This document shows positions 1 through 64,000 of a stretch of 64,000 nucleotides of DNA, piece after piece. The translations under genes and the position numbers were made by a program. The stretch spans positions 6,167-70,166 of the forward strand of contig JAGQHN010000008.1 in the NCBI GenBank assembly GCA_020431825.1, given 5' to 3'. Every line of letters begins with the position of its first letter. Position 1 is the first letter of the stretch. This stretch comes from Trueperaceae bacterium. GTDB taxonomy: Bacteria > Deinococcota > Deinococci > Deinococcales > Trueperaceae. The notes under the pieces are model-generated. The model was not told the origin of the DNA, searched no databases, and saw only the letters and a program-made list of their open reading frames with translations.

Positions 1-696
1 CCTGATCGTTTGCAGGCACCCAATCAAACCTATCTTCTGGGCACCGATGAGCTAGGCCGTGATATTTTTAGCCGCGTGCTTTACGGAGGTCGCATCACCA
101 TTCCGGCAGGCCTTGCGGTCATTATTATTGATGGCATTTTAGGGCTGGTGATTGGCGCCGTTGCTGGTTACCTTGGTGGCATCTGGGACGAAATTATGAT
201 GCGCCTGACCGAGCTTTTTATGGCCTTCCCTACGATTATCTTAGCGATGGCAGTTACGGCTGCCCTTGGCCCCAGTCTGATGAATGCCGTCTTAGCTCTT
301 GTTATTGTCCGCTGGCCTGATTATGCACGGCTAACCAGAGGCATCATCATTGAAAATAAAACAGCCGAATATGTCGAGGCAGCCAAAGCTCTGGGCGGCA
401 AAAATCCCTATGTCCTTTTTCGCACCTTGTTACCTAACAGTCTTGCGCCTGTATTGGTTTACGGCTCACTTGATATTGGCAACGCCATTTTGATTTTTGC
501 TGGACTTAGTTTCTTAGGGCTTGGCCCTGAACCTGCTTCTCCAGAGTGGGGACGCATGATCTCTATTGGCATAGATTTTTTTGACCAGTGGTGGATGTGG
601 CTTTTTCCAGGGCTGGCCATTGCCAGTTTGGTGATGGCGTTTAATTTTATTGGCGATGGGTTACGGGATTTGCTTGATCCGAGGATGCGAACCTAA
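1..696 (+). CDS. ABC transporter permease, peptide/nickel (DppC/OppC-like) family; 5' end lies outside the window
   Basis: Reading frame is open from base 1. Multi-TM protein with LGTDELGRD near the N-terminal part and the binding-protein-dependent permease loop (EYVEAAKALGG). Confidence 0.8.
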   Translation, partial: PDRLQAPNQTYLLGTDELGRDIFSRVLYGGRITIPAGLAVIIIDGILGLVIGAVAGYLGGIWDEIMMRLTELFMAFPTIILAMAVTAALGPSLMNAVLALVIVRWPDYARLTRGIIIENKTAEYVEAAKALGGKNPYVLFRTLLPNSLAPVLVYGSLDIGNAILIFAGLSFLGLGPEPASPEWGRMISIGIDFFDQWWMWLFPGLAIASLVMAFNFIGDGLRDLLDPRMRT

Positions 697-714
697 AAAA
701 GTTATGCTTGAGAT

Positions 715-1728
715 ATGAAGCTCGAGTACCTCAACAAAATCATCATCGGCGGCTGGCAACTCTCTCAGGGTCACAGCGAAGCCTCACAAACCGAAGCGCT
801 CAAAGTCATAGAGAGTTACTACGCAGCAGGTTTCAGGGTTTTTGACTGCGCTGATATTTATACGGGTGTTGAAGCAAACATAGGAAACTTTATACGGGCA
901 CACGGACTGGGACCAGACGACATAAAAGTCCATACCAAGTATGTGCCTGATATGACGATGCTCGAGACTCTGACCTTTGAGCAAACCGAGGTGATTATTG
1001 ACCGCTCACGCTCGAGGCTTGGGCTCGAGCAACTTGACCTGGTGCAGTTTCACTGGTGGCACTACCCTAGCGGTAGCTACTTAGCGGCACTTGATAGCTT
1101 GAAAAAGCTCAAAGAGCTGGGCAAACTAAGAGAAATTGGTCTGACGAATTTTTCTGCTGAGCGTGTTCAGGGTATCGTTGACCACGGCATTCCGGTAGCC
1201 TCAATCCAGGTGCAATACTCAGTGATAGACAGGCGAGCAACAAAGAGGCTCGAGCAAGTCACCCAGGCAAATGACATCCAGTTGCTATGCTATGGCAGCG
1301 TAGCTGGCGGGCTTTTGTCTGACCATTATTTAGACAAAAGCGAACCTCAGGAACCTCACGAAAACCGCTCGCTGACCAAATATCTCCTTATGGTTGAAGA
1401 AATGGGCGGTTGGGATGCTTTGCAAGCTCTTCTAGGTGTTTTAAGAGCCATTGCCAATACGCACAACACAGATATTGCCTCGCTTGCTTCGGCCTATTGT
1501 CTGGCGCAAGCTGCGGTGCGCGCCTGCATTGTTGGCGCACGAAATACCAAACATCTGCAAGAACATGTGGCATTAAGGGATGGGCTCGAGCTTTCCGCAA
1601 CAGAACTCACACAAATTGAAACCGTCCGATCAAAGTTTAAAGCCATTCCTGGTGACGTTTACGAACTCGAGCGCGATGTCGAGGGCAGACACGGACGCAT
1701 TATGAAATACAACCTCAATAAAGGTTAA
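715..1728 (+). CDS. aldo/keto reductase family oxidoreductase
   Basis: 337 aa with AKR-like segments (FDCADIY, LDLVQFHWW, IGLTNF). Follows the permease gene by 18 nt. Confidence 0.75.
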   Translation: MKLEYLNKIIIGGWQLSQGHSEASQTEALKVIESYYAAGFRVFDCADIYTGVEANIGNFIRAHGLGPDDIKVHTKYVPDMTMLETLTFEQTEVIIDRSRSRLGLEQLDLVQFHWWHYPSGSYLAALDSLKKLKELGKLREIGLTNFSAERVQGIVDHGIPVASIQVQYSVIDRRATKRLEQVTQANDIQLLCYGSVAGGLLSDHYLDKSEPQEPHENRSLTKYLLMVEEMGGWDALQALLGVLRAIANTHNTDIASLASAYCLAQAAVRACIVGARNTKHLQEHVALRDGLELSATELTQIETVRSKFKAIPGDVYELERDVEGRHGRIMKYNLNKG

Positions 1729-1752
1729 ACCTTACATTTTACCCGGGTGATA

Positions 1753-1781
1753 TTGACAAACAGATTTTACCCGGGTAAAAT
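1753..1781 (+). promoter_or_regulatory. sigma70-type promoter TTGACA-17 nt-TAAAAT; predicted start site coincides with the ATG at 1788 (leaderless mRNA)
   Basis: TTGACA at 1753-1758 and TAAAAT at 1776-1781 with a 17-nt spacer. The ATG begins 7 nt after the -10 hexamer and has no Shine-Dalgarno sequence. Confidence 0.6.
1764..1781. promoter_or_regulatory. 18-bp perfect palindrome ATTTTACCCGGGTAAAAT overlapping the -10 element; candidate operator
   Basis: Perfect dyad read directly from the sequence. A 13-nt copy, ATTTTACCCGGGT, is repeated at 1736-1748, upstream of the -35 element. Confidence 0.55.
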
Positions 1782-1787
1782 TAAGCT

Positions 1788-2357: not shown

Positions 2358-2400
2358 ACCTTTTTAAAGTTATTCTTTAAAAGAATGCTAGGCTTTCACT

Positions 2401-11671: not shown

Positions 11672-11799
11672 ATTTTTCCCTTCCCAAACTATTGAAATGA
11701 ACGAAAAACCTGCTGAATAAAGACAACTCGAGCCTTTAAACCCTTCTGTTCCACCTCCTAAATACAGCTATAGTCAAAAGACTTCTGAGGCAATTGAAG

Positions 11800-13752: not shown

Positions 13753-14763
13753 CTAATTTTGGAAAAAGTCAAGCAAAGTCTCTGCAAAACGGTAATTTGC
13801 CTCTTTGGTACGCCCAGCCATATGCGGCGTATGCAGCACATTGTGCCGACCTATAAGAGGATCATCCAGGGGCAAAGGTTCCACATCAAAGACATCCGCG
13901 GCAAGACTCACTTCATCCTTTAAAACCCGTTCTCTTAGTGCTGTAAAATCAGTAATAAGCGCTCTGGTCACCAGCACCACCAGACAACCCTCAGGTAAAC
14001 ACTGAATGTGTTCTCTTGTCACTAGCCCCCTTGTGGTTTCAGTCAAAGGTAACATCGGCACAAAAATCTCGGCGTCATCTAAGAGTTGTTCCAAATAGCG
14101 CACGCGCCTCGAGCCACTGCGGTGAAAACTGGCTTCGGGTGCATAGGGGTCCCAGGTTGCCACGTCTGCCCCTAAAAAATGAGCAAAACTGGCAAAGCGA
14201 CTGCCGATATTCCCGGCACCTACAATGCGCACTCGTTTGCCCCCTAAGGTACCACTGGTGAACTGAGTGGTATCGCAAAACTGCACACCCCGTTTCTCGG
14301 GCTGTCCTACTCCATCTTCGGGCTCATAGTCCCAGGGTTTTAAAGACGTCATCATACTTCTATAAGCCTGAGGAATCTGACGAAGCGCTGAAAGAGTTAA
14401 GGCCAGCGCAAACTCAGCCACCGACTGACCCCAGTAACCTTCGCTATCGTGTTTGTAAACCCTCACGTTTCTTGCTGCCAGAAAATCAAGACAGTTCTGA
14501 GCTGCCTGCTGGCCGTAAGGGTCGGTATAAATAACGGCTTCTTTTAGCGAGCTAAAAGGCTCGAGACTTTGCTCTGTCACAGGTGCCATGAGCGAAATGA
14601 GCGCTTCAACGTTCTCTGGCTGCTCGAGTAACTGTTCGATTGACTTTGTTTCGTTTGGCTCGAGCCTCAGCAACTTGGCGTTCCAGAGCTTTGCCAGATG
14701 ATTGGCCACAAAGGGCCAGGTTCCTTCAAAACTTGGATGAACAAGAATCAGGTTTTTATACAT
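13753..14763 (-). CDS. D-isomer-specific 2-hydroxyacid dehydrogenase family protein
   Basis: NAD-binding motif VRIVGAGNIGSRFA and C-terminal HTPHMAGRT. Confidence 0.8.
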   Translation of the reverse strand: MYKNLILVHPSFEGTWPFVANHLAKLWNAKLLRLEPNETKSIEQLLEQPENVEALISLMAPVTEQSLEPFSSLKEAVIYTDPYGQQAAQNCLDFLAARNVRVYKHDSEGYWGQSVAEFALALTLSALRQIPQAYRSMMTSLKPWDYEPEDGVGQPEKRGVQFCDTTQFTSGTLGGKRVRIVGAGNIGSRFASFAHFLGADVATWDPYAPEASFHRSGSRRVRYLEQLLDDAEIFVPMLPLTETTRGLVTREHIQCLPEGCLVVLVTRALITDFTALRERVLKDEVSLAADVFDVEPLPLDDPLIGRHNVLHTPHMAGRTKEANYRFAETLLDFFQN

Positions 14764-20750: not shown

Positions 20751-21323
20751 GGAGAAGGCTCGAGGCTTAGCTAATATCTCATTGGCTAAAACAATGATGA
20801 TCTAACCATTCTTTCCAAGGGTAATTGAAACACTTGCAAGTTTACTAGCATTTTCACACCTCATTGAGACAAGCGTTTGCAATCACCCATTGTGAATACG
20901 GAAAAAGTGTCTCAATGAATCTTGAAACTGCTATGCGTTAACGATCAGCAAGTTTGGCAGCCTTTGCATTGGCTTAGGTGACAATCTCAGGTTTGCGAAA
21001 AGACTCATCCATATATTCAGAAGTGGTCAACTGGGTTTTTAGACTGTCTGCCCTAATTCACTTTCACAAATCTTTAAATTAGGTCCCAGACCGATCCCTC
21101 AGCAATTAGCCTAGGGCTAACAGATTACTTCTCAAAACTTATTAAGACGATGCTAAGCTAGCACGATAGTGTTGCCGAAGTAAATGAGTAAAAACCAAGT
21201 GCCGAATTGTCAATATCAGTCGGGCAATGGTTTAGCGCCTCCTAGAGTTGAAGGCAACAGATACGTTCGCTCCAAAAATCCAATCCGTTATTGTAGCTTT
21301 TTTCTCTTAGCTTGCTAAATTAG

Positions 21324-22082
21324 CTAAGCTTGAAAAAATCTTTTATGTAAATAAGGTTGTAAAAGCAGTCCATTTAAATCGATCAGAGCATGAACAAGCA
21401 TAACCAGCCAGATATTTCCCGTCGCAAGATAAAGCACAGTAAACGCTGCGCCTAAAAGGGTCGTAATCATAATGCCGGCCCAGCCCTGATAAAAGTGTGC
21501 CAAGCCAAAGAGTAAAGCAGCCAAAACCAGCGCCAAGATGGCCTGCTTAAAAACCAGGTAAAAAAGCAGGGGTAACAATAAACGAAAAAAAAGTTCCTCA
21601 CTAAATCCAGCATTTATGGCCAGCAGAGCTGCCCAAAAACCCTCCGCCTTATTTCTAGGAAAAAACGCCTCTACATCGCCAACAATAAGCGGCTTTTGGG
21701 GCTTTTTCTTTTTCAGCAGGATGCCAAGCACTACACCAAGCAGAATCCCTCCAAATATAGCGCCAATGAGTAAGCCTGAAACAAAGCTGCCCCCTTCCGA
21801 AGCAGAATTATCTGTAAGGGTAAAAAAGTTGTTGGATATCAGAGTGCTAAAAGCAGAATACAGGGAGCTTAATAGCCGTCCCTGGCCCATTAATAGAAGG
21901 CTAAGTATACTCGAGCATCCAAACAGCAAAAAAGACTCGAGTAACCACTTCTTGTACATGCGTTGTCTGTCAGAACTTGACACTAAAGCCTTAAAAGCTT
22001 CAAATTCTCGTTTATCTTGTCGCATGCGAAAAAGTAAAATACCCACAAATACAGGTAAAAGCAGGTAGGCTAACCAATCCAT
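21324..22082 (-). CDS. CPBP family intramembrane glutamic endopeptidase (CAAX protease-like)
   Basis: Motifs SEELFFR, FGLAHF and HALIDLNG. Confidence 0.8.
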   Translation of the reverse strand: MDWLAYLLLPVFVGILLFRMRQDKREFEAFKALVSSSDRQRMYKKWLLESFLLFGCSSILSLLLMGQGRLLSSLYSAFSTLISNNFFTLTDNSASEGGSFVSGLLIGAIFGGILLGVVLGILLKKKKPQKPLIVGDVEAFFPRNKAEGFWAALLAINAGFSEELFFRLLLPLLFYLVFKQAILALVLAALLFGLAHFYQGWAGIMITTLLGAAFTVLYLATGNIWLVMLVHALIDLNGLLLQPYLHKRFFQA

Positions 22083-22916
22083 TTATGAGCCTTTTTCGTC
22101 AGCATTGTTACGTTGTCTCCTCTACTTATTGCCCGAAGCCATTTTACTTGCTGCAGGTAATCGTCTTAACCACCACATACTGATAAAACCAAAGACTGGC
22201 CCCAGTGCCAAAATCATAAAAGCGTAGCGCCAACTAAGCCAAGCTTCTAAAGGTGGAATCATCCGAATGGTAAAGAGCGTTAGCAAAAAACCCATACTGG
22301 TTTGCATGGGTGCGCCAAGAAGCGCATATTTGTAATGTGTCTGATGACACCTTTAGGAGATTAGCAGCCTAATGAACCGTTGGGGCGTAGCCACTATATA
22401 CTCACGTAGAGGTGAAATAGCTGCCCCTGAAAGGCGGGTTGAGAGTCAACAGCAGACTCAAGATGACTCCGCTTGGTTGAGGAATGATATGATTAGTAAA
22501 GCGAACATCGGTCTAGTCGGGATACCCAGCTCCAGTCGAAACGCTGTTGGAGTCAATAAAATGACTCAAACGACTGTACGCACTCCTGCACCATCTACCA
22601 TGCTTGGCGCAGGACATCACATGGCCGTGGATGACAACCCTTACGCTAATTTGGGAAGTCTGTGCGTAGACACTCTCAACCTGAGAGCTAAAAGACATAC
22701 GATGAATCTAAGTCATTCCGTTACAGTACAAATATGTGAACTTGGGAAGGTTATGCGGGGAGTCATGAGTATGACAATGAAGCGCATAACTGGCGGAGCC
22801 GCCGTAGTAGTCCGAGACAGGGAAAGCCTGTTACAAGGCAACTTGCCATGGCGAAGGGCGGCAGTCCGAAACCTCTCTAATGCAAAGGTACTTAATGAAC
22901 AAGTTGGTGAATATCA

Positions 22917-24623
22917 ATGAATATTAAGGAAATGCAAAAGAGACTTAGTTTCTGGAGTATGGAAGGCAAAAAGATGAATAATGTCTACAACCTTCTCTAC
23001 GACAGAACATTCTTAGAGGCCGCTGCTAACAAAGTGTTAAGCAATGCTGGCAGCATAACGGCAGGATGTGATGGCATCGACAGATACGTCTTCGACAGAG
23101 ACTTCGACTATCAAATAAACAAGATAGCCGAAGAACTCAGAGAAGGAACTTTCGAGCCATACCCGGTACGGAGAGTCAATATTCCCAAAACAAACGGGAA
23201 ATTAAGACCTCTAGGTATCCCATCCCTCAGAGACAGGGTAGTACAGGAAGTGCTCCGCATGGTACTGGAACCCATCTTTGAACCTCAATTCAGCGAAAAC
23301 TCATTCGGCTTTAGGCCAAACAGGAACACTATTCAGGCCATCAAATATCTGACCCATTACCAGTCTGCGCAAAGCAAGTATTACTGGGCCGTTGAAGGGG
23401 ATATTCAGTCCTACTTCGACACGGTTAACCACCGCAAACTCAGCAAGCTTGTAGGGCGCCGGGTAACGGATAAGAAAGTTCTTGACCTGATATGGAAATT
23501 CCTAAGAGCGGGTGTTATGGAGAAAAGGTTATTCAAGAATACTGAAAGCGGCGTGCCGCAAGGAGGCATCTTGAGCCCCTTATTAGCCAATATCTACCTG
23601 AATGAGCTAGACCAGTTTGTTGGACATGAACTTGGAGCCAACTTCACAAGAACTCAGATATACTACCGCCAAGGCAAAGGGTTACCTACCTTCGGCTACG
23701 TAAGATACGCTGACGACTTCGTGCTAGTGGTAAGAGGTACAAAACAACAGGCCCAGGAAGCCAAAGACACTGTCATTAACTTCCTGACGGAAAAGCTCAA
23801 GCTCACGGTCGCGCCAGAAAAAACCAAGCTGACACACATTGCAGAAGGCTATGAGTTCCTTGGTTATGAATTGCTGAGAAGAGACATGGGATACGGTACA
23901 TTCAGCACGTCAACCTATATACCTATGAAAGCGTCCAAGAAAGCGCTAGCTAAACTAGAGCAAATGCTGGACAAAGCAACGTATAACCACTCTGTTATCG
24001 ATAAGATAAGAGCGGTTAATGCGTTCACCACGGGGTGGTGCAATTACTACAAGTACGCCAATAATAGCACAGTAGTGTTTAATTGGCTGAGTGATAAAAC
24101 GCATCATCTGTTTGCACACTGGCTAGCTAGAAAGCAGAAAAGCACAATTGCAAAGCTCTACGCAAGCAACGTGTACAAGGACACCAACTGGGTATATCAA
24201 GGGTTTACACTGAAACGGGCCACAACCATTAAAAGGGTAAGTATGCGACAAGTGAAATTCAAAGACATTCTCAATCCCTACCTAGACGAAGGATTGATTG
24301 TCAGAGAAGAATTACTTGTTTCGGACAAAGCCTGGGGCGGCAGCTCAAAACGCCGCACCGCCGACCTCCGCATGACCGTATTGCAAGAACAAGGTTTTGA
24401 ATGTAACCACTGTCATAAAGAATTAAGCTTTGAGACAGCAGAATTGCATCATAAAAGCCCATTCAAGCGGTACAAGAACGTGGACTCTGCTAACCTCAGA
24501 GAAAACGTCGAAGCGTTATGCAAAGAATGTCATTTAACAGAAACTAGGAAATTTCGGATGGAAAGCCGGATGCAGGGAAACTTGCACGTCCGGTTTGGAG
24601 GAGAGGGTGAGCCTAATGGTTAA
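22917..24623 (+). CDS. group II intron reverse transcriptase/maturase with HNH endonuclease domain
   Basis: RT motifs (GVPQGGILSPLLANIYL, RYADDFVLVV), maturase X domain (TGWCNYYKYAN) and En domain (CNHCH...HHK...CKECH). The 3' end of the ORF reads through domain V. Confidence 0.9.
   Translation: MNIKEMQKRLSFWSMEGKKMNNVYNLLYDRTFLEAAANKVLSNAGSITAGCDGIDRYVFDRDFDYQINKIAEELREGTFEPYPVRRVNIPKTNGKLRPLGIPSLRDRVVQEVLRMVLEPIFEPQFSENSFGFRPNRNTIQAIKYLTHYQSAQSKYYWAVEGDIQSYFDTVNHRKLSKLVGRRVTDKKVLDLIWKFLRAGVMEKRLFKNTESGVPQGGILSPLLANIYLNELDQFVGHELGANFTRTQIYYRQGKGLPTFGYVRYADDFVLVVRGTKQQAQEAKDTVINFLTEKLKLTVAPEKTKLTHIAEGYEFLGYELLRRDMGYGTFSTSTYIPMKASKKALAKLEQMLDKATYNHSVIDKIRAVNAFTTGWCNYYKYANNSTVVFNWLSDKTHHLFAHWLARKQKSTIAKLYASNVYKDTNWVYQGFTLKRATTIKRVSMRQVKFKDILNPYLDEGLIVREELLVSDKAWGGSSKRRTADLRMTVLQEQGFECNHCHKELSFETAELHHKSPFKRYKNVDSANLRENVEALCKECHLTETRKFRMESRMQGNLHVRFGGEGEPNG
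24563..24596 (+). ncRNA. group II intron domain V
   Basis: AAGCCGGAUGCAGG-GAAA-CUUGCACGUCCGGUUU: 34 nt with the AGC triad, a 2-nt AC bulge and a GAAA tetraloop. Confidence 0.85.
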
Positions 24624-32816: not shown

Positions 32817-33027
32817 TATGTTTCCTTTACAGCTTGAATCGTTTTCCAGACAATGGTTCTTTCTAGATGCGTGCCCTGTTTATCTTTTTGCGCTTTACGA
32901 CTATTCTTTCCGTCAAGGTACTCGAGGGTTAACCTATCGCCTCCTTAAAGCAGTGCGACATCTCTCACGTTCAAGGCAGTCTTTGAGCAAGTACGCTAGA
33001 CATAATCTAAAGTAAAGGATGCAGACT

Positions 33028-34381: not shown

Positions 34382-34467
34382 ACGCAAACTAAAGAACTAA
34401 GAACTCCGAAAGGCTGTTCTCAGATAATCAGGAGAGAACAAACTTTCTCGAGGTGGGTTGTTCGCCC

Positions 34468-35380: not shown

Positions 35381-35458
35381 CTTGGTTATAAATTAAGCTC
35401 GAGCCCGTTTAAGGGCAAAGCACTCTTAGAAGTCTAACAAGTTCAGCGCTCAAACACT

Positions 35459-38860: not shown

Positions 38861-39110
38861 GTTTCCCTTTCTCTCAGCCTCGTCTGTCTGCGGTTGGAGA
38901 CCAGAGCAACCTTGATTTGCAGACCTTCAAAGAGTAGTTACACAGCTAAGTTATTTTTGGATGTTTAAAGTTTTGATGAAGTCAAACTTGTGGATTTTTT
39001 AACAAAAAAGAGCATATTTTTGTAGGTTAAACCAATGAATTTAATCTAACTCACTAAAAAGAGCTGAATCAGCCAGCCAAAACTCGAGCCCTGTAGTCTG
39101 TTAGCGGTCC

Positions 39111-40106: not shown

Positions 40107-42740
40107 TCAAAATTGACAGCGAATCACTCGTATAGCACGACCGGGCAAATCAATTTGCATACGTCCATTACTTACAGCAATCTCTTCCTGACTGTTTTCA
40201 AGTAAATCACAGTTAAAAGCTGCCTTAAGCTCGAGTAATCCTGAAGCAATCTCAGCGGTTTGCACCCCATCACTGGCATTTAGCAGCCGCAGAATAAGTC
40301 CCTTACCCTCGTCAGCTTGCTTGATATGCAAAACCTGAAAAGGCGCGTTAGGTAACTGAAGCAGTTCCCCCTCTGGAGGTAAAGCGTCACCACCCCTCGA
40401 TTGCTCAGCCATGTGCTGAAAAAGCGGCAAGTCGTTGAGCGCCTCTTGACCCAGACGGTGAGCAGCACTTTCATCAAAAGCACCCTCATAGGCTTCAATT
40501 CGGTAGCGAGCCTCTACCTGACCCGGCTGATGCGAGCGAAAATTGGTCTCCCAGTAATTGTTGGTCACCCAGCCAAGCAAGGTGGCTTGCTCGAGCCTAA
40601 AGTCCATCTGATACTTGCCAAACTGAAAGCCACCAAGTTGTACCATCGGGTTTTCAGGCATAGCAACCCGTACACCGCGCTGACCATTATTAAAGTCAAC
40701 CCAGCCCTGCACGGTAAAGTAGTCACGGCACACTCCCGGAAGTTGCTCTTCACCTGCCAGCACAGCCTGTCCGCCCACGTCATACCTTGCTTTTGCCTCA
40801 GGCAAATCAAAAGGAAAAACCAGATAGCTTGCTTCCGGGTGGCTGTCAAGCATCATCGTCCAGTGGGCTGAGCAGTCAATAAAATCAGCATAATCGGGCA
40901 AAAAGACCTGCTGGCTTAAAAGCCCATCCATCCCTTTTGCCTCAAGTTCCTGTACCACCAGAAGACCATAAGGCAAGCGATAAACCTCATGTTTTAGCAG
41001 CTTATGAGGCGCCTCACGGCGAGCATGCCAGTCCTTTTTCCAACCCGTCGGAATCTCGGCAAGTTCCGCGTTCCAGTCCTGATAAAAGAGTCGGTGGCGC
41101 GGCGGCTTAAAGCCTCTGTCGGCCACTTCTTCATGAACATAGCTGTGTAAAGGATAATCGGCCGCCGTATTAACCATTTCCCAGTCAAGCTTTTTGTCAT
41201 ATAGCGAGCTAATTCCGCCTCTTTCCCGGTCAAAGACAAGACGGTAACGGTGATTTTCTACTGTGGCAGCTTCACCAAGTAACCGCTCCTCGCTTTTGAC
41301 CAGCTCGGCTCGAGCCACGACCTTATATCCAAAGGCAGGAAGTTCGGTTGCAGGCAAATCAAACTGATCGCCCCTGTGCCAGTGATCGCCTGCTTGCTTT
41401 TTCCACTTGCGGTCCTGATGATGGCGCCCAGCTGTGCTATCACTGGCAACACCACGAGGATTCGTCACAAAGTAAGGCACTGAGCCTGCCACCGTTCGTG
41501 ACCAGGGTAGAGGATTAAACAGCAAAATATCATCGGGATGCTGGCGCTGAACCTGCTGGGCAAAATCACCGACGGCTTCACGCTGTAACAAGGTGCTTAG
41601 ACTGCGCGCCTTATGAGCGTAATCCGCTTTGTGATACCACTGAGTACGCGCGTCGTCATTATTGGGCTGGTTTATAGAAGAGTCAGCACCCCAGGTATGC
41701 TCATCCCAGAAGTTAAGCTGATGCCAGGCTTCTTTGCGGTGGCGAGAAAAAGCCTTATCTGACCATTTCGCTGTATTGACAACTTGCTTTAATCCACCAT
41801 AAACGGCGTCCGCAGCCCTTAGCTGCGCCCGGCTGATGCGGTTAAGCCGCGTTTCATGGGCACTGCTGACGCTGCCAAAATTCCAGTAGTCTGTCCAGTC
41901 TCCTTGAAGTGTCTCGAGCTTAGCAGCATGCTGCTCAACAGCCTGCCACCACAAGCGCGGCGTTGCCATAACAATTTTAGGTTCTTGACTGGCATTCCAA
42001 GTATCAATAAACGGCGTAAAGTCAAAGGCACTGCCGTTATCCCCGTAAGGATGATAGGTCTGCAACAGCAGGATTGGCAAAGGATAATCAATCTCGCTCA
42101 AATAGCTTTGTAACCGCTGCCAGCGAAGTTTGAATTCGTCTTGATCCCGACCAATCCCTTCACGCCAGGCTTTGTCGTAAGGCCAGCCGTTATTTACCTT
42201 GAGACTGCGACCCGAGGGAGCCTGCCAGTTAAAGGTGCTAGGTCTGGGCTGAAGCGCACCACCAAAATGACTATTGATAGCCATACTAAAACCCTTTATG
42301 CCTAAATCTAAAAGGACATCGGTCAGGGGCCAGTTCTGTCCATTAACATCGCAGTTCATGGCATGTTCGATGCTAAAACCATAGTCCTGGCGCAAACGAC
42401 GCAGGATTTGAAAACTCTCGATAAGCTGATCGGTGTCATAGAGCGGGGTTATGTTGGCAAACATGCCCGTGACTTCAACCCGCCCCTGACGCTCGAGCCT
42501 TATCAGTCTGTCAATCTCAGCGTCCGTGGCGTACCTGAGCCAGTACTCAAGGATAGCCGTTGTCTCAATTGTCCAGCGGAAAGCCCCGTCGCTATCATGG
42601 TCCTGATACTTTTCTGCCAGATCAAGCGCCTCATCAATAAAACGGCTATGCATTTCCCAGACAATCGGCTGATCCTGGGTATAGCCAATATCGGTATGGC
42701 TGTGGTGAACCAGATAAATTGTCTCAATCTTATTTTTCAT
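40107..42740 (-). CDS. glycoside hydrolase family 38 alpha-mannosidase
   Basis: N-terminal IYLVHHSHTDIGYT metal-binding motif. 877 aa. Confidence 0.85.
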   Translation of the reverse strand: MKNKIETIYLVHHSHTDIGYTQDQPIVWEMHSRFIDEALDLAEKYQDHDSDGAFRWTIETTAILEYWLRYATDAEIDRLIRLERQGRVEVTGMFANITPLYDTDQLIESFQILRRLRQDYGFSIEHAMNCDVNGQNWPLTDVLLDLGIKGFSMAINSHFGGALQPRPSTFNWQAPSGRSLKVNNGWPYDKAWREGIGRDQDEFKLRWQRLQSYLSEIDYPLPILLLQTYHPYGDNGSAFDFTPFIDTWNASQEPKIVMATPRLWWQAVEQHAAKLETLQGDWTDYWNFGSVSSAHETRLNRISRAQLRAADAVYGGLKQVVNTAKWSDKAFSRHRKEAWHQLNFWDEHTWGADSSINQPNNDDARTQWYHKADYAHKARSLSTLLQREAVGDFAQQVQRQHPDDILLFNPLPWSRTVAGSVPYFVTNPRGVASDSTAGRHHQDRKWKKQAGDHWHRGDQFDLPATELPAFGYKVVARAELVKSEERLLGEAATVENHRYRLVFDRERGGISSLYDKKLDWEMVNTAADYPLHSYVHEEVADRGFKPPRHRLFYQDWNAELAEIPTGWKKDWHARREAPHKLLKHEVYRLPYGLLVVQELEAKGMDGLLSQQVFLPDYADFIDCSAHWTMMLDSHPEASYLVFPFDLPEAKARYDVGGQAVLAGEEQLPGVCRDYFTVQGWVDFNNGQRGVRVAMPENPMVQLGGFQFGKYQMDFRLEQATLLGWVTNNYWETNFRSHQPGQVEARYRIEAYEGAFDESAAHRLGQEALNDLPLFQHMAEQSRGGDALPPEGELLQLPNAPFQVLHIKQADEGKGLILRLLNASDGVQTAEIASGLLELKAAFNCDLLENSQEEIAVSNGRMQIDLPGRAIRVIRCQF

Positions 42741-42799: not shown

Positions 42800-42813
42800 A
42801 AGGCTCGAGCCTT
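42800..42813 (-). terminator. weak terminator-like palindrome AAGGCTCGAGCCTT followed by a U-tract (minus strand)
   Basis: 14-bp perfect palindrome centred on CTCGAG, followed on the minus strand by TTTTATTTTTTG. Lies between the E1 and GH38 genes. Confidence 0.35.
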
Positions 42814-42903
42814 ATGCTTGCTATAGTTTCAATCTAGCAAAGTCGTCTGGCTCGAGCCACGGTAAAACTGGACAAGAATGTTTAAAAAACGGACAAAAGC
42901 AAG

Positions 42904-45360
42904 TTATATACCCAGGCAATTACGTCTGACAATCTCAGCAGCACTCTGTGTCGTGCTAACGTTATGACCCTCGAGTGGCAAAATGCTCTCATGAATCGCA
43001 TCTAAGATCCACTCTTTTTGCGGAAAGAAGGCTTCCTCGAGCTCCGCAGGTGGGGTAATCCAGTTTCGCGCACCAACAACCACAATGGGCGCGTCCAGAT
43101 AATTAAAAGCCAAATGGCCCAAGGTCGATGCCATGGTGTGGAGAAATGAGCCACGCTCACAGGCATCTGACGCCAGAACCAGACGACCCGTCTTTTTCAC
43201 CGACTCGAGAATTGTTTCATAATTTAAGGGGTTGATAAAACGCGCATCTATAACTTCAGCAGATAAACCGTAGCTTTCCTCTAAAATCTTGGCAGCCTCG
43301 AGTGCACGGTAAAGCGTTGCACCCACCGTAACCATGGTCAAATCACTTCCTTCACGGCGCAGCGCAGGCTCACCCATAGGTACTTCGTAGTAATCCGTCG
43401 GAACGCCACCTTCAACCAGCGTTTCCGTTTCGGTGTAAAGGCGCTGGCTTTCAAAAAAGACCACCGGGTCAGTACCGCGCAGTGCCAGATTGAGCATTCC
43501 TTTAGCGTCATAGGGTGTTGCTGGAAACATAACTTTTAAACCAGGAATATGGGCACAGAGCGATGACCAATCCTGTGAATGCTGCGCACCGTACTTGGAA
43601 CCGACCGACACACGTAAGACCATCGGCATAGTTAAAACACCAGCCGACATAGACTGCCACTTGGCCATCTGGTTAAAGATTTCATCGCCGGCACGACCCA
43701 TAAAATCGCAGTACATCAGCTCAGCTACGACACGCCCACCTGAAAGTGCGTAACCGACTGCCGTTCCCACAATGGCAGCTTCGGAAATCGAGCTATTAAA
43801 CAGACGATGATAGGGCAAAGCCTCTGTCAGACCACGGTAAACGCCAAATGCGCCGCCCCAGTCGCGGTTTTCCTCGCCGTAAGCAATCATGGTGGGGTCT
43901 TCATAAAAACGGTGAATCATGGCCTCAAAGAGCGCTTCGGCGTAGGTCAGGGTTTTGAGTTTTGAGGTCGGTTTGCCGTCTTCTAAACCAAAGCGAAGCT
44001 TGCCCTGGGTCACGCTTAAACGCGTTTCAGATAGGGCTTGCAGCGTTTCAGGTTTGCCCTCTTCCATGCGGTCTTTGACGCCATTAGAAAACATCAGGTC
44101 TCCAATGGTGTTGCTGCTAATACTCATATAGGGTGAAAGCTCGGTGGATATAGCAGCCTCAGTAATGCGCTTAATGCGCTCCAAACTTTCAGCAATGACC
44201 GCCTCTAAGTCAGTTTGCGAAGCATGTTTGTTGTCTCTCAGGTACTCAGCAAAAGATAGAAGCGAATCCTGTGAACGCCAAAGCTCGAGCTCATCACGCT
44301 CACGGTAGCTCGAGGCGTCTGAGGGAGAGTGCCCACTAAAGCGGTAGGTAATGGTATCAAGCAAAACTGGCCCTTTACCCTTTAAGAGCAAGTCTTTTTT
44401 GCGTTTGATGGCATCAGCGACAGCAAGCGGATTGTAGCCGTCTATGCGCTCAGCGTGCATGGCTTCAGGGTTTACTCCCATAGCGACTCTTGCCAACATG
44501 CCAAAGCCCATGGTCTCGCCTTGCGGTTGCCCACCCATACCATAAAAGTTATTCATAAAATTAAAGAGAATGGGCGGCGCCCCGCCTAAGTCTTTATCCC
44601 AGAGGGTTTTGTACTGGTCCATCGCGGCAAACATCATGGCTTCCCAGACCGGACCACAACCCATCGAAGCGTCACCAATATTGGCAATACAAATACCAGG
44701 TTTGCGGTTTACCCGTTTAAATAAGGCAGAGCCTGTGGCGATGTCAGCAGAACCGCCCACCAGCGCATTATTGGGCATAACCCCAAAAGGTGGAAAAAAG
44801 GTATGCATCGAGCCGCCCAGGCCTTTGTTAAAGCCTGTTTCACGCGCAAAAATTTCAGCCAATACCCCATAAAGTACATAGTCAATCGCTAAATCCTTGA
44901 TGTCTTTATGTTCAAAGCGCTCAACTACTTTAAGCGCGGCACCGTCCATATAGGACTGCATAATGGACTCAAGTTCAGCTTCAGAAAGCTGCTCGATGGC
45001 AGAAAAACTCTTGGCTAAAATCTCGCCATGGCTACGGTGTGAACCAAAAATAAAGTCATCTGGGCTCAGGTAATACGCCTGCCCCACCACGGAAGCCTCT
45101 TGCCCAATGGACAAATGCGCAGGGCCGCGGTGGTTATAGCTTATGCCCTCGTAACTGCCCTCACGCTTAAAGCGGTCAAGCATGGTTTCAAACTCTCTTA
45201 TGTAAACCATGTCGCGGTACATGCGCCGCAGGGTTTTCTTACCGTAGGTTTTGGCTTCTTTTTTGGGCTCAGCGTTGTAGGCATTAACGGGTAAGTCGGG
45301 TGCAGTGATGACCCCCGGTTTACGCACCTCACGCGGGTCAATGGTTATGGATTTGGGCAT
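42904..45360 (-). CDS. fused 2-oxoacid dehydrogenase E1 component (alpha and beta subunits in one chain)
   Basis: 818 aa. The N-terminal half has the TPP motif (GDASMGCG...[10 protein letters not shown]). The C-terminal half is a transketolase-like pyrimidine-binding and C-terminal domain. Confidence 0.8.
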
Positions 45361-58251: not shown

Positions 58252-58728
58252 TTTTTTATTATGACCCTCTCTGTTTGATCTTTTATGTAAGCCAATAAAG
58301 TATCCTTTTGTGAATTAAACTGTAAACCTGACGATCAAAAGCATAGCGCTCGAGCCTCCTCAAAAGCTAAAAAGGATTGAAATTTAAAGTGGTTTCGGCT
58401 ACTATTCCCTGAGCGGTTTTAGGTTACCTGGCGAGTAAAGACTTAAATGTTCCCTTTTTTAGTCTGGTCAGAATACTTTCTGTAGCCTTGGTTTTACCAA
58501 AGGAGTTTAAATGTCCTGCTTTCTCATTTACTGCGTTTAAAGCGCAGCCGGGTCAGACTCGAGCCTGTATCATGAAGCTTTGTTAAGCCAATCCTCACAT
58601 ACCTAATTTTTTAAGGTATACTGCGCCATGACTTTGTTCATGCGCTTACTGGTTTTGCTTATCGGCCTTTAGTCTGACGTTCTAGTTATCTTCTGTAGTT
58701 AAACTCAAAGTTCAAAAAGGAGATTACC

Positions 58729-60519: not shown

Positions 60520-60567
60520 CTTTCCTCTTTTCCCTTTTCACTTTCCCCTTTTCAAAGGAGCTTACTA

Positions 60568-62391: not shown

Positions 62392-62394
62392 TAA

Positions 62395-62426
62395 GTCAAG
62401 GATAGTAGGCATCTACTATCCTTGAC
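62395..62426 (+). terminator. strong hairpin after the ABC exporter operon
   Basis: 14-bp perfect stem GTCAAGGATAGTAG/CTACTATCCTTGAC with loop GCAT. No clear U-tract. Confidence 0.55.
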
Positions 62427-62520
62427 CATTAATCATCCTCCTCAATAAGCGAATATCCAAAAGTTTCCATCAGAGCCTAAACTTTGTGAAATAAAAATTA
62501 TGCTTTCCCCATCTCAAGCT

Positions 62521-62529
62521 TGTTACAAT
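62521..62529 (+). promoter_or_regulatory. extended -10 element TGTTACAAT upstream of the ClC gene
   Basis: TGnTACAAT ends 9 nt before the ATG at 62539 and there is no Shine-Dalgarno sequence, implying a very short or absent leader. Confidence 0.45.
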
Positions 62530-62538
62530 CTTTAAGCT

Positions 62539-64000
62539 ATGCGTGTTCTTTTGCGAAGCTTTCTCAGCGCAATTAAAGATCTGAATGTCCTGGTTGATTT
62601 GCCGGGTCACTTTGATGGACATGAACGGCGGTTGGTGTTTCAAGCGATTGTCATTGGCATACTGGTTTGGGGAATCGTTTTTGCCCTTAAGTCCAGTGTG
62701 CATCTGGTCTTTTCTCATTTATTAGCCTGGCTCGAGCATACCCCTTATCCCTTTCTGGTATTTATTCCCCTCTTTTTGGCAGGAGCCTTGGTTTCTCTCT
62801 TAGCGCGCTTTAAACCTACCCTGATTAATTACCGCGACGCTGACGGGCATATTCATGAACTAAATGATGTAGAAGGCGATGGACTCGAGCGTGCCATTGC
62901 GCTTTACTACAGCTCTGAACCTCAGTTTGAATCTTCACTTTTAGGTCAAAATGGCATAGAAGCACGCTGGGAAATGCCTACCTTTTCGCTGGTCTGGCGC
63001 AAATTTCTCGCGACTTTTTTAACTCTAGGGGGAGGTGGTTCGGGAGGGCTCGAGGCCAGTGTCACCCTGATTGGCGAAAGTACCGCATCTGGCTTATTTA
63101 AACCGAGGCGCATTCGAAAACAAGAGGCAGAAGGCTGGTGGGGCCGCTTGAAACGCTGGTGGGGTTCTTCCAACACGGATGATTTACAAACGGCTCAGCT
63201 ATGCGGCATTGCCGCCGCGGTAGCAACGTTACTCGGTACCGCCTTCACTGCTGCCTTTTTTGCCATTGAGGTTATGTACCGCAGGCGTCCGGTGGTAGAG
63301 AAACTCATCTATGCGCTGGTTTCTTCCTTAACTGCCCTTATCCTTTCTAGCTTTGTGGTGCATGAAGGCGGTCTCTTTCAGGTAGAAGAAGTTCTTTTTC
63401 CGGTCATTAGCACACGTTACTACCTGGCCCTTATTATTATGGCTATTGCTATTGCCCTACTCAGCGTTTATTTTGGACGCCTGCGCTCGAGCTTCGAAGC
63501 CAGTTTCTTGCACCTGCAACCCAATAGCCTGAGGCGGCATCTTTTAGGAGCCGGTTTTACCGCTGCGATAGCCCTGCTTGTTTACTATCTCTTACCTCTT
63601 TTTGCCCATTACAATCTGATTCCTCAAGAGGCACTAAGTCACCGCTTCGCTCTCATTCTTGGCCCGGGAGAAGAAGCGATTGATCTGGCTCTTTCTGGGC
63701 ATATGGTTTTTTGGGTTGCTCTGATCGCCCTGTTTGGCAAGATGCTGGCAACGCTTGCTACGGTTGGCTCAGGAGGTTCAGCTGGCTTGCTGGTTCCCTC
63801 TATATTTTTTGGCACCATGGTAGCGACCATCATGGCCAGGCTTTTTGGGCTCGAGCCTCAAACCCTGATCGTTCCGGCCATGACTGCTAGCCTTGTGTCC
63901 ATTGTCAATGTACCGCTGGCAGCTGTCTTTTTACCCTTTGAACTTTTTGGTCAGGCCTATCTCTTACCCGCGCTGGTGGTTCTGATTGTTTGCTTCTTAT
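62539..64000 (+). CDS. ClC family chloride channel/antiporter-like membrane protein; 3' end lies outside the window
   Basis: My own translation from the ATG at 62539 is open to the end of the window, so it is absent from the ORF track for lack of a stop codon. Polytopic protein with ClC-like glycine motifs (GGGGSGGLEAS, GSGGSAGLLVPSIFFG). Confidence 0.7.
   Translation, partial: MRVLLRSFLSAIKDLNVLVDLPGHFDGHERRLVFQAIVIGILVWGIVFALKSSVHLVFSHLLAWLEHTPYPFLVFIPLFLAGALVSLLARFKPTLINYRDADGHIHELNDVEGDGLERAIALYYSSEPQFESSLLGQNGIEARWEMPTFSLVWRKFLATFLTLGGGGSGGLEASVTLIGESTASGLFKPRRIRKQEAEGWWGRLKRWWGSSNTDDLQTAQLCGIAAAVATLLGTAFTAAFFAIEVMYRRRPVVEKLIYALVSSLTALILSSFVVHEGGLFQVEEVLFPVISTRYYLALIIMAIAIALLSVYFGRLRSSFEASFLHLQPNSLRRHLLGAGFTAAIALLVYYLLPLFAHYNLIPQEALSHRFALILGPGEEAIDLALSGHMVFWVALIALFGKMLATLATVGSGGSAGLLVPSIFFGTMVATIMARLFGLEPQTLIVPAMTASLVSIVNVPLAAVFLPFELFGQAYLLPALVVLIVCFL

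Follow-up and report, generated by a model that had tools for sequence, protein, structure and literature searches.

Cyanobacterial genomes carry highly iterated palindromes (HIPs): HIP1 is GCGATCGC, and the alternate HIPs are GGCGCC, rCCGGy, GCsGC, GGGATCCC and TCGATCGA (Elhai 2015, PMC4390886; Xu et al. 2018, PMC5861425). Each alternate HIP is found together with its cognate methyltransferase, and a ratchet based on G-meC-directed repair has been proposed for these words (PMC4390886). Methylated HIP1 increases transformation >100-fold (bioRxiv 10.1101/2024.09.10.611283), and molecular spread by preferred uptake, proposed for the uptake sequences of Pasteurellaceae (USS) and Neisseriaceae (DUS), has now been proposed for HIP1 as well.

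We analyzed a 64-kb stretch (the window) of a Trueperaceae (Deinococcota) MAG, in which the hexamer CTCGAG appears to be the closest counterpart of HIP1 outside the cyanobacteria, with the anatomy of a HIP but a new word and a new phylum. The likeness, already drawn in an initial annotation, proved apt point by point. As with the HIPs, the word is short, GC-rich, palindromic and the most over-represented in its genome; it is found in every reading frame and outside coding sequence, with no longer repeat around it. Its density is 2.4 per kb, compared to 0.5–2.5 per kb for HIPs. In both cases a methylase-type hexamer core favors an outer G...C (G-CTCGAG-C parallels G-CGATCG-C), a clade has the core in common but differs in the flanks, close relatives retain one another's sites, and abundance is lost in sporadic relatives. 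Unlike HIP1, CTCGAG is the XhoI site, with TCGA rather than GATC, and its octamer reflects nothing beyond two flank preferences that act independently. Alternate HIPs come with a cognate methyltransferase; for CTCGAG in Trueperaceae, such an enzyme and the methylation itself are putative. A word found about once per 400 bases in uncultured Deinococcus relatives offers a non-cyanobacterial parallel to the puzzling HIP1 watermark.

CTCGAG also resembles USS and DUS, which occur about once per kb, in coding DNA, in all frames and at tolerable positions, are shared among relatives and rare in newly acquired DNA, and are thought to build up by molecular drive rather than per-site benefit. However, USS and DUS are 9–12 nt long, asymmetric and often terminator-paired, whereas CTCGAG is a 6-nt palindrome with one terminator-like site, and competence is putative. 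Avoidance of restriction sites is the usual fate of 4–6-bp palindromes; CTCGAG belongs to the same class of words and shows the opposite sign, enrichment. In E. coli, very-short-patch repair by Dcm/Vsr, as Bhagwat and McClelland (1992) and Merkl et al. (1992) reportedly described, moves CCWGG up and CTWGG down. There, as proposed for CTCGAG, a methyltransferase target is over-represented as repair turns near-cognates into the target. The Dcm/Vsr effect is <2-fold with a clear T-for-C deficit, whereas that for CTCGAG is 10–50-fold and CTTGAG/CTCAAG is not depleted (0.86).

Results

Direct counting gave exactly 153 CTCGAG sites in the window (2.39 per kb), an exact match to the earlier figure of ~153. 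Base composition predicts 14.1; 100 dinucleotide-preserving shuffles of the window yielded 9.68 ± 3.13 (largest, 18); and Markov models of order 1, 2 and 3, trained on the window with CTCGAG masked, predict 8.4, 5.3 and 2.9. In the initial annotation, comparison with a Markov model had been set beforehand as the refuting test. Even the maximal-order expectation, 113.4, stays below the observed count (z = 11.7), and this figure is too high because 93% of CTCGA pentamers sit within CTCGAG. Outside CTCGAG, TCGA is depleted in the clade, to 0.35 of the base-composition and 0.64–0.69 of the Markov expectation. Observed/expected values for one-mismatch variants are 0.86 (CTTGAG/CTCAAG), 0.46 (TTCGAG/CTCGAA), 0.34 (GTCGAG) and 1.28 (CTAGAG); together, these values show no clean repair signature, a point against a repair bias.

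Coding sites number 143 and intergenic sites 10. All three codon phases are represented, as had been claimed, with 100 sites reading CTC-GAG, 10 xCT-CGA-Gxx and 33 xxC-TCG-AGx. Expected values are 10.4, 1.6 and 2.3, respectively, when codons are shuffled synonymously within genes (500 shuffles; per-phase maxima 19, 8 and 7), so that the two phases other than CTC-GAG exceed this null 6× and 15×. Of the synonymously reachable positions, 64%, 13% and 23% are occupied across the three phases. CTC-GAG encodes 100 of the 157 Leu-Glu dipeptides, where codon usage predicts 9.0; CTC-GAA and CTG-GAG are rare in this role (1 vs 14 and 4 vs 15 expected), and outside CTCGAG, CTC accounts for just ~10% of the codons used for Leu. 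In intergenic DNA (40% GC), the 10 sites compare to 0.84 expected, a 12× excess; only two of them lie in longer palindromes, and only one is terminator-like. Phases, Leu-Glu codon pairs and intergenic excess strongly support a process that targets DNA, not protein sequence, and overrides normal codon choice. The initial annotation had argued as much, naming Leu-Glu codon-pair usage as the sole cause that would tell against it; the excess in the other phases and in intergenic DNA speaks otherwise. The peptides it cited (KLEY, GSRG, ISSP and EAREY) and its intergenic sites are all present, but several of its coordinates were wrong by 1 to 18 bases (6349 for 6348 and 6571 for 6582 among the peptides; 11709 for 11727 and 58339 for 58349 among the intergenic sites).

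The base 5′ of CTCGAG is G at 81/153 sites and the base 3′ is C at 84/153, in line with the flank bias reported previously. At phase-0 sites, a preceding G is seen in 60% of cases (third-codon-position background, 22%) and a following C in 54% (first-position background, 22%). Each half-site in the window's genome also favors a flanking G, giving GCTCGAGC. The window has 60 copies of CTCGAGCC/GGCTCGAG and 40 of GCTCGAGC; for the latter, the two 7-mers predict 44.5, which indicates that the flank preferences are independent. Because they are independent, and weaker in other clade members, the common unit is the hexamer CTCGAG, and the description of the word as extended toward GGCTCGAGCC was an overstatement. 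This decamer does occur, five times rather than the four reported (0.09 expected in shuffles): 42802 and 42849 were correct, 41307 was missed, and 14649 and 63849 were 8 bases and 1 base off (true starts, 14657 and 63848). The copy at 42802 forms the top of a 14-nt palindrome, AAGGCTCGAGCCTT, followed by a minus-strand T-run directly past the E1 dehydrogenase gene, and looks like a terminator.

Eight further relatives with GC contents of 44–51% have 1.8–2.8 CTCGAG per kb; where compared, their E1 proteins are 74–95% identical to that of the window. The nine genomes together (164 kb) contain 388 sites, with 56% of Leu-Glu written CTCGAG. At ~110 control loci, this value is 9% and the high density is absent; many of the Chloroflexota controls avoid the word, and one relative (L242) has only 0.5 per kb. 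The trait is a property of a mid-GC (44–51%) uncultured Trueperaceae clade, and because eight independent contigs carry it, genome-wide counts at the codon-aware expectation outside the window are unlikely.

In the related locus L001 (80.6% nucleotide identity), 14/14 CTCGAG sites are common with the window, compared to 28% for hexamers overall; when only conserved Leu-Glu positions are considered, site conservation is weak (5/9 kept vs 34% for the control). The E1 gene served as a probe for cross-genome comparison. It has 6 sites and 10 Leu-Glu dipeptides in the window; trait genomes have 7–10 such dipeptides, compared to 4.5 ± 1.7 in 77 orthologues from trait-free genomes. Across the nine genomes there are 18 site columns, none of them occupied in all, and the tree requires a minimum of 35 changes. 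At column 108, ancestral Lys/Ser/Arg/Gln/Ala-Glu became Leu-Glu, as CTCGAG, on three separate branches, a positive outcome of the check for convergent substitutions suggested at the outset, and gains are found where outgroups do not encode Leu-Glu. The alignments indicate that sites last between close relatives and turn over across the clade, and that some gains alter amino acids. Routes to CTCGAG are mostly synonymous changes at Leu-Glu and sometimes conservative or charge-changing replacements. A sequence-specific DNA process generates CTCGAG wherever it is tolerable, and density is held near 2–3 per kb. The largest CTCGAG-free stretch contains a group II intron, whose reverse-transcriptase ORF (22917–24623) has three Leu-Glu, 0/3 written CTCGAG. 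The intron is mobile, newly arrived DNA in which conversion to CTCGAG is still to come.

Table 1. CTCGAG sites and associated features of the window
Feature	Position	Strand	Remarks
CTCGAG starts, 1–10 kb	721, 961, 1011, 1024, 1249, 1585, 1666, 2097, 2187, 2249, 2461, 3499, 4287, 4335, 5058, 5785, 6348, 6582, 6949, 7138, 7213, 7585, 7770, 7861, 8606		
CTCGAG starts, 11–20 kb	11099, 11585, 11727, 12798, 12980, 13211, 13237, 13350, 14108, 14560, 14623, 14659, 14954, 15856, 16702, 16965, 17067, 17361, 18504, 18915, 19844, 19917		
CTCGAG starts, 20–30 kb	20604, 20759, 21910, 21936, 25425, 25872, 26576, 26970, 27058, 27468, 27879, 27984, 29066, 29163, 29547, 29688, 29727, 29766		
CTCGAG starts, 30–40 kb	30632, 30699, 30961, 30972, 31166, 31963, 32921, 33274, 33529, 34097, 34171, 34447, 35398, 36135, 36215, 36492, 36528, 37344, 37390, 37850, 38678, 38687, 39083, 39114, 39186, 39372, 39535		
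CTCGAG starts, 40–50 kb	40230, 40590, 41309, 41913, 42492, 42804, 42851, 42970, 43036, 43204, 43297, 44284, 44309, 46166, 46298, 46359, 46601, 46661, 46924, 47232, 47255, 47739, 48042, 48248, 49782, 49986		
CTCGAG starts, 50–64 kb	50113, 50291, 50436, 50706, 50990, 51064, 51637, 52424, 54012, 54111, 54606, 55666, 55826, 55986, 56064, 56441, 56654, 56981, 57134, 57289, 57618, 58349, 58558, 58797, 59059, 59722, 60111, 60702, 61993, 62173, 62731, 62884, 63049, 63486, 63850		
Intergenic CTCGAG	11727..11732	.	outside ORFs
Intergenic CTCGAG	20759..20764	.	outside ORFs
Intergenic CTCGAG	32921..32926	.	outside ORFs
Intergenic CTCGAG	34447..34452	.	outside ORFs
Intergenic CTCGAG	35398..35403	.	outside ORFs
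Intergenic CTCGAG	39083..39088	.	outside ORFs
Intergenic CTCGAG	58349..58354	.	outside ORFs
Intergenic CTCGAG	58558..58563	.	outside ORFs
Decamer palindrome GGCTCGAGCC	14657..14666	.	motif search
Decamer palindrome GGCTCGAGCC	41307..41316	.	CTCGAG core common to L001
Intergenic decamer GGCTCGAGCC	42802..42811	.	CTCGAG core kept in L001
Intergenic decamer GGCTCGAGCC	42849..42858	.	within 12-nt palindrome TGGCTCGAGCCA; CTCGAG core kept in L001
Decamer palindrome GGCTCGAGCC	63848..63857	.	motif search
E1 dehydrogenase gene	42904..45360	-	fused alpha/beta subunits; PF00676, PF02779, PF02780
Largest CTCGAG-free stretch, 3.5 kb	21942..25424	.	contains group II intron

Discussion

We propose that this Trueperaceae clade has its own highly iterated palindrome in CTCGAG, driven by a putative CTCGAG-specific methyltransferase that biases repair or transformation, a reading to which we assign a probability of roughly 0.55. 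The initial annotation had listed three candidates: an orphan XhoI-type methyltransferase with biased repair, an uptake or recombination signal, and a nucleoid-organizing site. By analogy with cyanobacterial HIPs, the methyltransferase would mark the sites, and methylated CTCGAG may then bias either mismatch repair (Elhai's ratchet) or the uptake or recombination of transforming DNA. By either route, fixation would favor mutations toward CTCGAG over those away from it. Elhai's ratchet also predicts a G flanking the first C of the word. Against this reading, the window and the called neighbors in ~100 kb of related DNA yielded no gene for a methyltransferase, a restriction endonuclease or Vsr, and mismatch repair in Deinococcota involves a MutL endonuclease and is not known to be methyl-directed.

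Transformation could also act with no repair bias at all, if a putative competence or recombination machinery preferred CTCGAG, perhaps only when methylated, and alleles carrying it spread. We view this as possible, though rather unlikely. Deinococcus and Thermus are naturally competent, the HIP1 boost to transformation is methylation-dependent, and HIP1 abundance correlates with competence genes. In density, occurrence in all frames and in non-coding DNA, absence from the intron, and clade-wide sharing, CTCGAG resembles uptake sequences, many of which lie in terminator-like hairpins, as one intergenic CTCGAG does. However, known uptake sequences, at 9–12 nt, are non-palindromic, a 6-nt word has little specificity, and longer palindromes are found at only 2/10 intergenic sites.

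Direct selection for a chromosomal role, whether as a binding site for a nucleoid-associated or segregation protein or in a domain organization like that invoked for HIP1 periodicity, seems improbable. In its favor, close relatives keep CTCGAG far more than other hexamers, density is uniform (1.8–2.8 per kb) despite differing GC content and gene order, and Xu et al. argue for HIP1 selection and periodicity, although the scale in question is 10–90 kb and the window is 64 kb. Yet the clade as a whole shows no conservation of site positions, and the number of sites per gene merely tracks that of Leu-Glu dipeptides. Spacing in the window is roughly Poisson (mean 415 bp, CV 1.12) and no more even than random choice among available positions (1.04 ± 0.08). 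This lends no weight, in the repair reading either, to any requirement for evenly distributed sites, for instance for telling strands apart every ~1 kb.

It is very improbable that the sites are relics of a high-GC ancestor, retained from a time when CTC and GAG were preferred and the hexamer was common by nature, as in GC-rich Deinococcota, while the genome drifted AT-ward. In viral contigs of 70% GC, CTCGAG reaches observed/expected values of 10–20 from base composition alone, and the closest GC-rich loci by the 26790–28307 ORF (L081 and L082, 62% GC) show a mild excess, with 28–34% of Leu-Glu as CTCGAG vs 15% expected. However, passive retention should spare CTG-GAG and CTC-GAA, both of which are depleted, as well as CTC elsewhere, and the excess extends to the other two phases and to 40%-GC intergenic DNA. 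Codon-pair depletion, together with gains at positions where outgroups lack Leu-Glu, largely refutes this scenario.

An effect on protein (favored Leu-Glu) or on translation (favored CTC-GAG codon pair) would fit the 70% of coding sites in that phase and the slight Leu-Glu enrichment (157 vs 138 expected, O/E 1.13), but the latter is too small for a 10-fold DNA excess and better taken as a result of DNA-level pressure, the flank preference for G and C spans codon boundaries, and the phase (6-fold and 15-fold) and intergenic (12-fold) tests already refute it. Dispersed repeats or mobile elements of the REP or MITE type, or artifacts of cloning or assembly such as XhoI linkers, would explain high copy number and nothing further, and are already refuted: similarity ends ~2 bases past the hexamer with no repeat family beyond chance seeds, 143/153 sites are in-frame within intact ORFs, and the trait recurs in eight independently assembled contigs (NCBI, ENA, JGI and Logan).

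CTCGAG is in excess in every codon phase and between genes

The window holds 153 CTCGAG sites (2.39 per kb; 47.6% GC), precisely the number that the initial annotation had offered as approximate, and base composition predicts 14.1. In 100 dinucleotide-preserving shuffles the hexamer appeared 9.68 ± 3.13 times, with a maximum of 18, and Markov models of order 1, 2 and 3, fitted to the window after masking of the word, gave 8.4, 5.3 and 2.9 expected copies. Under a maximal-order Markov model the expectation rises to 113.4, seemingly near the observed count, and the excess still persists (z = 11.7). That model is conditioned on fragments of the word itself, and we set it aside as circular because 153 of the 164 CTCGA pentamers (93%) have G as the next base and belong to CTCGAG. 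CTCGAG has the highest observed/expected ratio (O/E) among all 6-mers in the window (10.9), and the octamer GCTCGAGC, in which the hexamer is flanked by G/C, has the highest among all 8-mers (40 copies, O/E 50). In none of ∼110 control loci does a palindromic hexamer present 10 or more times have an O/E above 10. The full decamer palindrome, GGCTCGAGCC, occurs five times rather than the four counted initially. The nested tetramer TCGA is found 243 times (248 expected), with 63% of its copies inside CTCGAG; once CTCGAG is masked, it has the lowest base-composition ratio of the 4-bp palindromes (0.35) and is moderately depleted under Markov models (0.64–0.69).

Viral DNA of ∼70% GC carries CTCGAG at 4–7 sites per kb, probably because CTC and GAG are preferred codons there. 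Contigs L174, L193, L220 and others from IMG/VR (∼70% GC) have base-composition O/E values of 15–21. Because GC-rich viral DNA reaches high CTCGAG through codon usage, base-composition O/E is misleading by itself, and it is a codon-aware null that carries the argument. For this null, synonymous codons were shuffled within each gene 500 times, preserving proteins and codon usage. A simple gene call (57 genes, 91% coding) assigns 143 sites to ORFs and leaves 10 as intergenic. The coding sites number 100 in phase CTC-GAG, 10 in xCT-CGA-Gxx and 33 in xxC-TCG-AGx, compared to shuffle means of 10.4, 1.6 and 2.3 and maxima of 19, 8 and 7. Occupancy of the positions that are synonymously reachable is 64%, 13% and 23%, respectively, the two lower values involving the rare codons CGA and TCG. 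Intergenic DNA (5.8 kb, 40% GC) contains 10 sites versus 0.84 expected. The initial annotation had placed sites in all three phases and in intergenic DNA, and all four classes indeed exceed expectation; every peptide context it quoted is present, although several of its coordinates were wrong by 1 to 18 bases.

The number of sites per gene tracks the number of Leu-Glu dipeptides. The dipeptide itself is barely enriched (157 versus 138 expected), and 100 of the 157 are written CTC-GAG versus 9.0 predicted from codon usage; CTC-GAA and CTG-GAG occur once and four times, where 14 and 15 are expected. A preference for the codon pair or for the protein sequence fails on the other two phases, on intergenic DNA and on flanking bases that lie across codon boundaries. 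Neither a Markov count close to that observed nor Leu-Glu codon-pair usage alone accounts for the excess, which extends to the remaining phases and to intergenic DNA. These data uphold the proposal that the force acts on DNA rather than on protein.

The unit is a hexamer with independent flank preferences

G precedes CTCGAG in 53% of cases, and C follows it in 55%. For phase-0 (CTC-GAG) sites, G occupies the third codon position just before the site in 60% (background 22%), and C occupies the first codon position just after it in 54% (background 22%), whereas Leu-Glu pairs written in other ways are preceded by G in only 12%. The octamer GCTCGAGC, toward which the initial annotation saw the hexamer extended, is observed 40 times versus 44.5 expected from its two 7-mers. 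The two flanks are independent, and hence the unit is six bases long, each half-site favoring a G beside the first C on its own strand. No conservation extends past ∼2–3 bases around CTCGAG, where the flank bias fades, and no longer repeat family containing the hexamer was found in the window beyond chance matches seeded by the motif. Spacing is approximately Poisson (mean 415, CV 1.12) and gives no support for even placement, as random draws from the synonymously reachable positions have a CV of 1.04 ± 0.08.

One of the ten intergenic sites is terminator-like (see table); this association is not general, and the region has no more terminator-like hits than chance would give. The largest stretch devoid of CTCGAG holds a group II intron, whose reverse-transcriptase ORF has three Leu-Glu dipeptides, none of them written CTCGAG. 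This suggests that the intron is a recent arrival, not yet converted.

Features of the window discussed in the text
Feature	Position	Strand	Description
Putative terminator	42800-42813	minus	intergenic CTCGAG in AAGGCTCGAGCCTT, then T-run, after the fused alpha/beta dehydrogenase (E1) gene
Largest CTCGAG-free stretch	21942-25424		holds group II intron
Group II intron	22917-24648		reverse-transcriptase/maturase ORF 22917-24623 (+), YADD motif; Rfam RF00029 (domains V/VI) match 24561-24648
Intergenic repeat TGGTGGTATCATCCTGACAAATGGC	35480-35504
Intergenic repeat TGGTGGTATCATCCTGACAAATGGC	16844-16868		inverted
Intergenic repeat TGGTGGTATCATCCTGACAAATGGC	32793-32823

The excess is shared by related genomes

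As a comparative probe we used E1, which in the window is 100% identical to NCBI protein KC422_03185 [Trueperaceae bacterium], encoded on a 71.6-kb contig; the family Trueperaceae is part of the Deinococcota. Exact searches with proteins of the window, meant to reach beyond it, ended without a record or at one 1.2-kb scaffold. The trait recurs in eight further contigs from NCBI MAGs and from ENA, JGI and Logan assemblies (GC 44–51%). In seven of these the E1 protein is 74–95% identical to that of the window, and the eighth, L083, was reached via an ORF at 26790–28307 (57% identity). The eight contigs have 1.8–2.8 CTCGAG per kb (O/E 8–14) and write 36–71% of their Leu-Glu dipeptides as CTCGAG. 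Together the nine genomes hold 388 sites over 164 kb (2.36 per kb), with 229 of 412 Leu-Glu pairs written CTCGAG. Because gene neighborhoods differ among the contigs, they do not represent one locus resampled. A dispersed repeat or an artefact is dismissed by the lack of extended similarity, the in-frame placement (143 of 153 sites in ORFs) and the recurrence in independent assemblies.

In 78 E1-bearing loci from Chloroflexota, Poribacteria and other groups, O/E ranges from 0 to 1.8, and many of these loci clearly avoid CTCGAG. About 9% of Leu-Glu pairs are CTCGAG in the pooled control loci, below their own codon-usage expectation, and two loci of 62% GC show only a mild excess. Many Chloroflexota E1 loci among L003–L080 (e.g. 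L006, L008, L009, L016, L020 and L031) have 0–1 CTCGAG in 15–22 kb (O/E 0–0.2); avoidance this strong would be expected of genomes in which XhoI-type restriction is common. Outside its own clade, the proteins nearest to the window E1 among the matches listed come from Chloroflexota and Poribacteria (about 76% identity), and no other Deinococcota E1 is among them, a hint that the E1-E2 operon has been exchanged horizontally.

One relative departs from the pattern. L242 (ENA ERZ27279858 k141_2462572; 45.9% GC) branches beside the window and its close relative L001, with an E1 84% identical to that of the window, and has 2 CTCGAG in 3.9 kb (0.51 per kb), with one of eight Leu-Glu dipeptides written that way. 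At the usual density of the clade, two or fewer sites would be expected with P ≈ 0.005 (Poisson estimate). Within the clade, the trait seems to have been lost in this lineage.

Sites turn over and can alter proteins

In 7.6 kb aligned between the window and L001 (80.6% nucleotide identity), all 14 L001 sites are common to the window, and 14 of 22 window sites are kept, compared to 28% of all hexamers. When only conserved Leu-Glu positions are considered the result is weaker (5 of 9 CTCGAG kept versus 34% for the control). At the eight window-only sites, the difference from L001 is mostly a C↔T or G↔A change, located in the central CpG and in the final base, and three of the eight carry an amino-acid difference, e.g. 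Leu-Glu versus Leu-Lys. Across E1 and E2, the window has six sites in common with L001 and three with L002, a further comparison contig; none is common to all three.

An E1 codon alignment of nine trait-bearing genomes plus four outgroups contains 18 site columns, none universal, with 2–7 sites per genome, and the tree requires at least 35 changes over these columns; at 74–80% protein identity, CTCGAG positions turn over. Homoplasy on this tree is not evidence of convergence, as saturation at synonymous sites makes control hexamers just as homoplastic as the CTCGAG columns. The level of homoplasy shows turnover, not special convergence, and the case for convergence consequently rests on non-synonymous changes. 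At column 108, most sequences have Lys, Ser, Arg, Gln or Ala followed by Glu, and L239, L242 and L244, on three separate branches, have Leu-Glu, all written CTCGAG. Three of the five in-frame window E1 sites fall where most orthologues do not have Leu-Glu, and E1 in three trait genomes contains 10, 8 and 7 Leu-Glu dipeptides compared to 4.5 ± 1.7 in 77 orthologues. From these cases it follows that the pressure is strong enough to alter proteins. Convergent substitution among orthologues, which the initial annotation had suggested looking for, is therefore seen in the non-synonymous changes of column 108 but not in homoplasy overall. Descent from a GC-rich ancestor, which would make the sites relics, fails as an explanation: CTG-GAG and CTC-GAA have not been kept but are depleted, and sites arise where Leu-Glu was not ancestral.

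CTCGAG belongs by anatomy to the highly iterated palindromes

Highly iterated palindromes (HIPs), among them cyanobacterial HIP1, are short and GC-rich and are the top over-represented word of their length, as is CTCGAG. HIP densities are roughly 0.5–2.5 sites per kb (Elhai 2015, PMC4390886), and CTCGAG, at 2.39 per kb (window) and 2.36 per kb (nine genomes pooled), lies within this range. Like a HIP, it occurs in all frames and in non-coding DNA beyond codon and amino-acid usage, and it is not part of a longer repeat. HIPs are also conserved over control words (Xu et al. 2018, PMC5861425), as is CTCGAG, though more weakly at conserved Leu-Glu positions. A further mark of the class is periodicity at 10–90 kb; over the short range that the 64-kb window covers, CTCGAG spacing is about Poisson. 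All described cases are cyanobacterial, whereas the source here is a member of the Deinococcota. By anatomy CTCGAG is a HIP, agreeing with the class in every testable sequence-level property except the cyanobacterial host, a mismatch that is one of novelty, not of function.

CTCGAG can also be set beside other known systems. Uptake sequences (USS/DUS) are asymmetric, 9–12 nt long, read by the competence machinery and frequently paired in inverted orientation as terminators, whereas CTCGAG is palindromic, only 6 nt long and prefers one base on each side independently, and one in ten of its intergenic copies is terminator-like. REP/MITE-type repeats have units of at least 20–30 nt and are mostly intergenic, in contrast to a hexamer that lies in ORFs at 143 of 153 sites and has no extended similarity around it. 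The footprint of Dcm/Vsr-type very short patch (VSP) repair in E. coli, marked by a deficit of T-for-C variants of the methylated target, appears to differ in both magnitude and signature. We found no report of CTCGAG hyper-abundance or of HIPs outside cyanobacteria, in a literature coverage that was incomplete and does not guarantee priority. In a 2026 preprint, CTCGAG and TCGA are among the methylated motifs given for hot-spring communities, but the text makes no explicit tie to Deinococcota.

A possible role for DNA methylation

A clade-wide, sequence-specific force at the DNA level opportunistically makes and maintains CTCGAG, up to a density that stays roughly constant. The mobile intron has so far escaped this force, which also seems to have ceased in one lineage or more. 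We put at slightly better than even (roughly 0.55) the probability that its driver is a specific methyltransferase whose marks bias repair and/or transformation. Such an enzyme would mark CTCGAG, and the methyl marks would then bias one or both processes. We favor this reading on the basis of HIP precedent, the flank pattern and work on HIP1 in transformation. Each alternate HIP in cyanobacteria co-occurs with a methyltransferase of matching specificity, and Elhai proposed a repair ratchet directed by G-meC that would put G beside the methylated C, independently on both strands (PMC4390886). If the first C were the modified base, this ratchet would predict the CTCGAG flank pattern exactly. Methylation of HIP1 raises natural transformation more than 100-fold, and HIP1 abundance is linked to competence genes (bioRxiv 10.1101/2024.09.10.611283). 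Within the methyltransferase reading, we cannot rank repair bias above uptake drive.

Several observations count against this reading or do not support it. No methyltransferase gene is present in the sequence read (the window and ∼100 kb): searching all six frames of the window, L001 and L002 for motifs gave no match, and methyltransferase, XhoI-type endonuclease and Vsr are all absent from the Pfam lists of neighboring genes on eight related contigs, ∼100 kb. Spacing of the sites is not regular. The one-off variants do not have a clean repair signature, with ratios to expectation of 0.86 for CTTGAG/CTCAAG and 0.46 for TTCGAG/CTCGAA, and values as low for the transversions GTCGAG (0.34) and CACGAG (0.43). 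Methyl-directed mismatch repair is not known in Deinococcota. Separately, a scan of viral contigs for GCTCGAGC N{20,50} GCTCGAGC, aimed at phages of this clade that might carry the methylase, was swamped by ∼70% GC phage DNA, where codon usage makes CTCGAG common, and yielded nothing from the 44–51% GC clade.

A broader proposition, which we regard as speculative and rather improbable, is that HIP-type watermarks are general and would arise independently upon fixation of a particular orphan methyltransferase. Methylated CTCGAG in the Trueperaceae clade would then be a self-DNA tag biasing natural transformation or repair, one that rewrites more than half of Leu-Glu codon pairs and even protein sequences.

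An independent replicate of the HIP puzzle

HIP1 has been a puzzle of origin and function for some thirty years, with all known cases in one phylum. CTCGAG is an independent replicate of this puzzle, and an unusually clean one, which would separate general HIP features from cyanobacterial history. Deinococcota are noted for being naturally competent and for repairing DNA in unusual ways. The word, an XhoI site nested around the TaqI site TCGA, differs from that of HIP1, and its read-out is simple: the fraction of Leu-Glu written CTCGAG is 36–71% in the clade versus about 9% elsewhere. At least nine genomes of graded divergence, including one low-density relative, form an evolutionary series in which the pressure is strong enough for convergent amino-acid replacements. 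Comparison of the L242 lineage with its high-density relatives is a natural on/off contrast that could identify the responsible gene. CTCGAG density is also a sharp marker for binning and for horizontal transfer in this clade, and genetic systems for these organisms would need to reckon with the predicted methylation.

Other sequence features of the window and of the comparison loci

Several other palindromes are scarce in the window. GGATCC and CACGTG do not occur, and GGGCCC (1 versus 8.2), CTGCAG (6 versus 17.6) and TGATCA (7 versus 16.9) are depleted relative to the maximal-order Markov expectation; these five may be footprints of restriction avoidance. The intergenic repeat TGGTGGTATCATCCTGACAAATGGC, 25–31 nt long and unrelated to CTCGAG, has two copies that are 96% complementary and may be an operator or promoter element. 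In the comparison set, L116 (Ga0299914_10000632) and L105 (Ga0302046_10029226), from an unrelated metagenomic lineage of about 50% GC, have a different hyper-abundant palindrome: the 18.6 kb of L116 contain 14 copies of ACGGCCGT (O/E 46), 22 of AACGGCCG (O/E 38) and 34 of CGGCCG, and L105 resembles it in palindrome pattern. The palindrome in these two contigs may be another HIP-type element.
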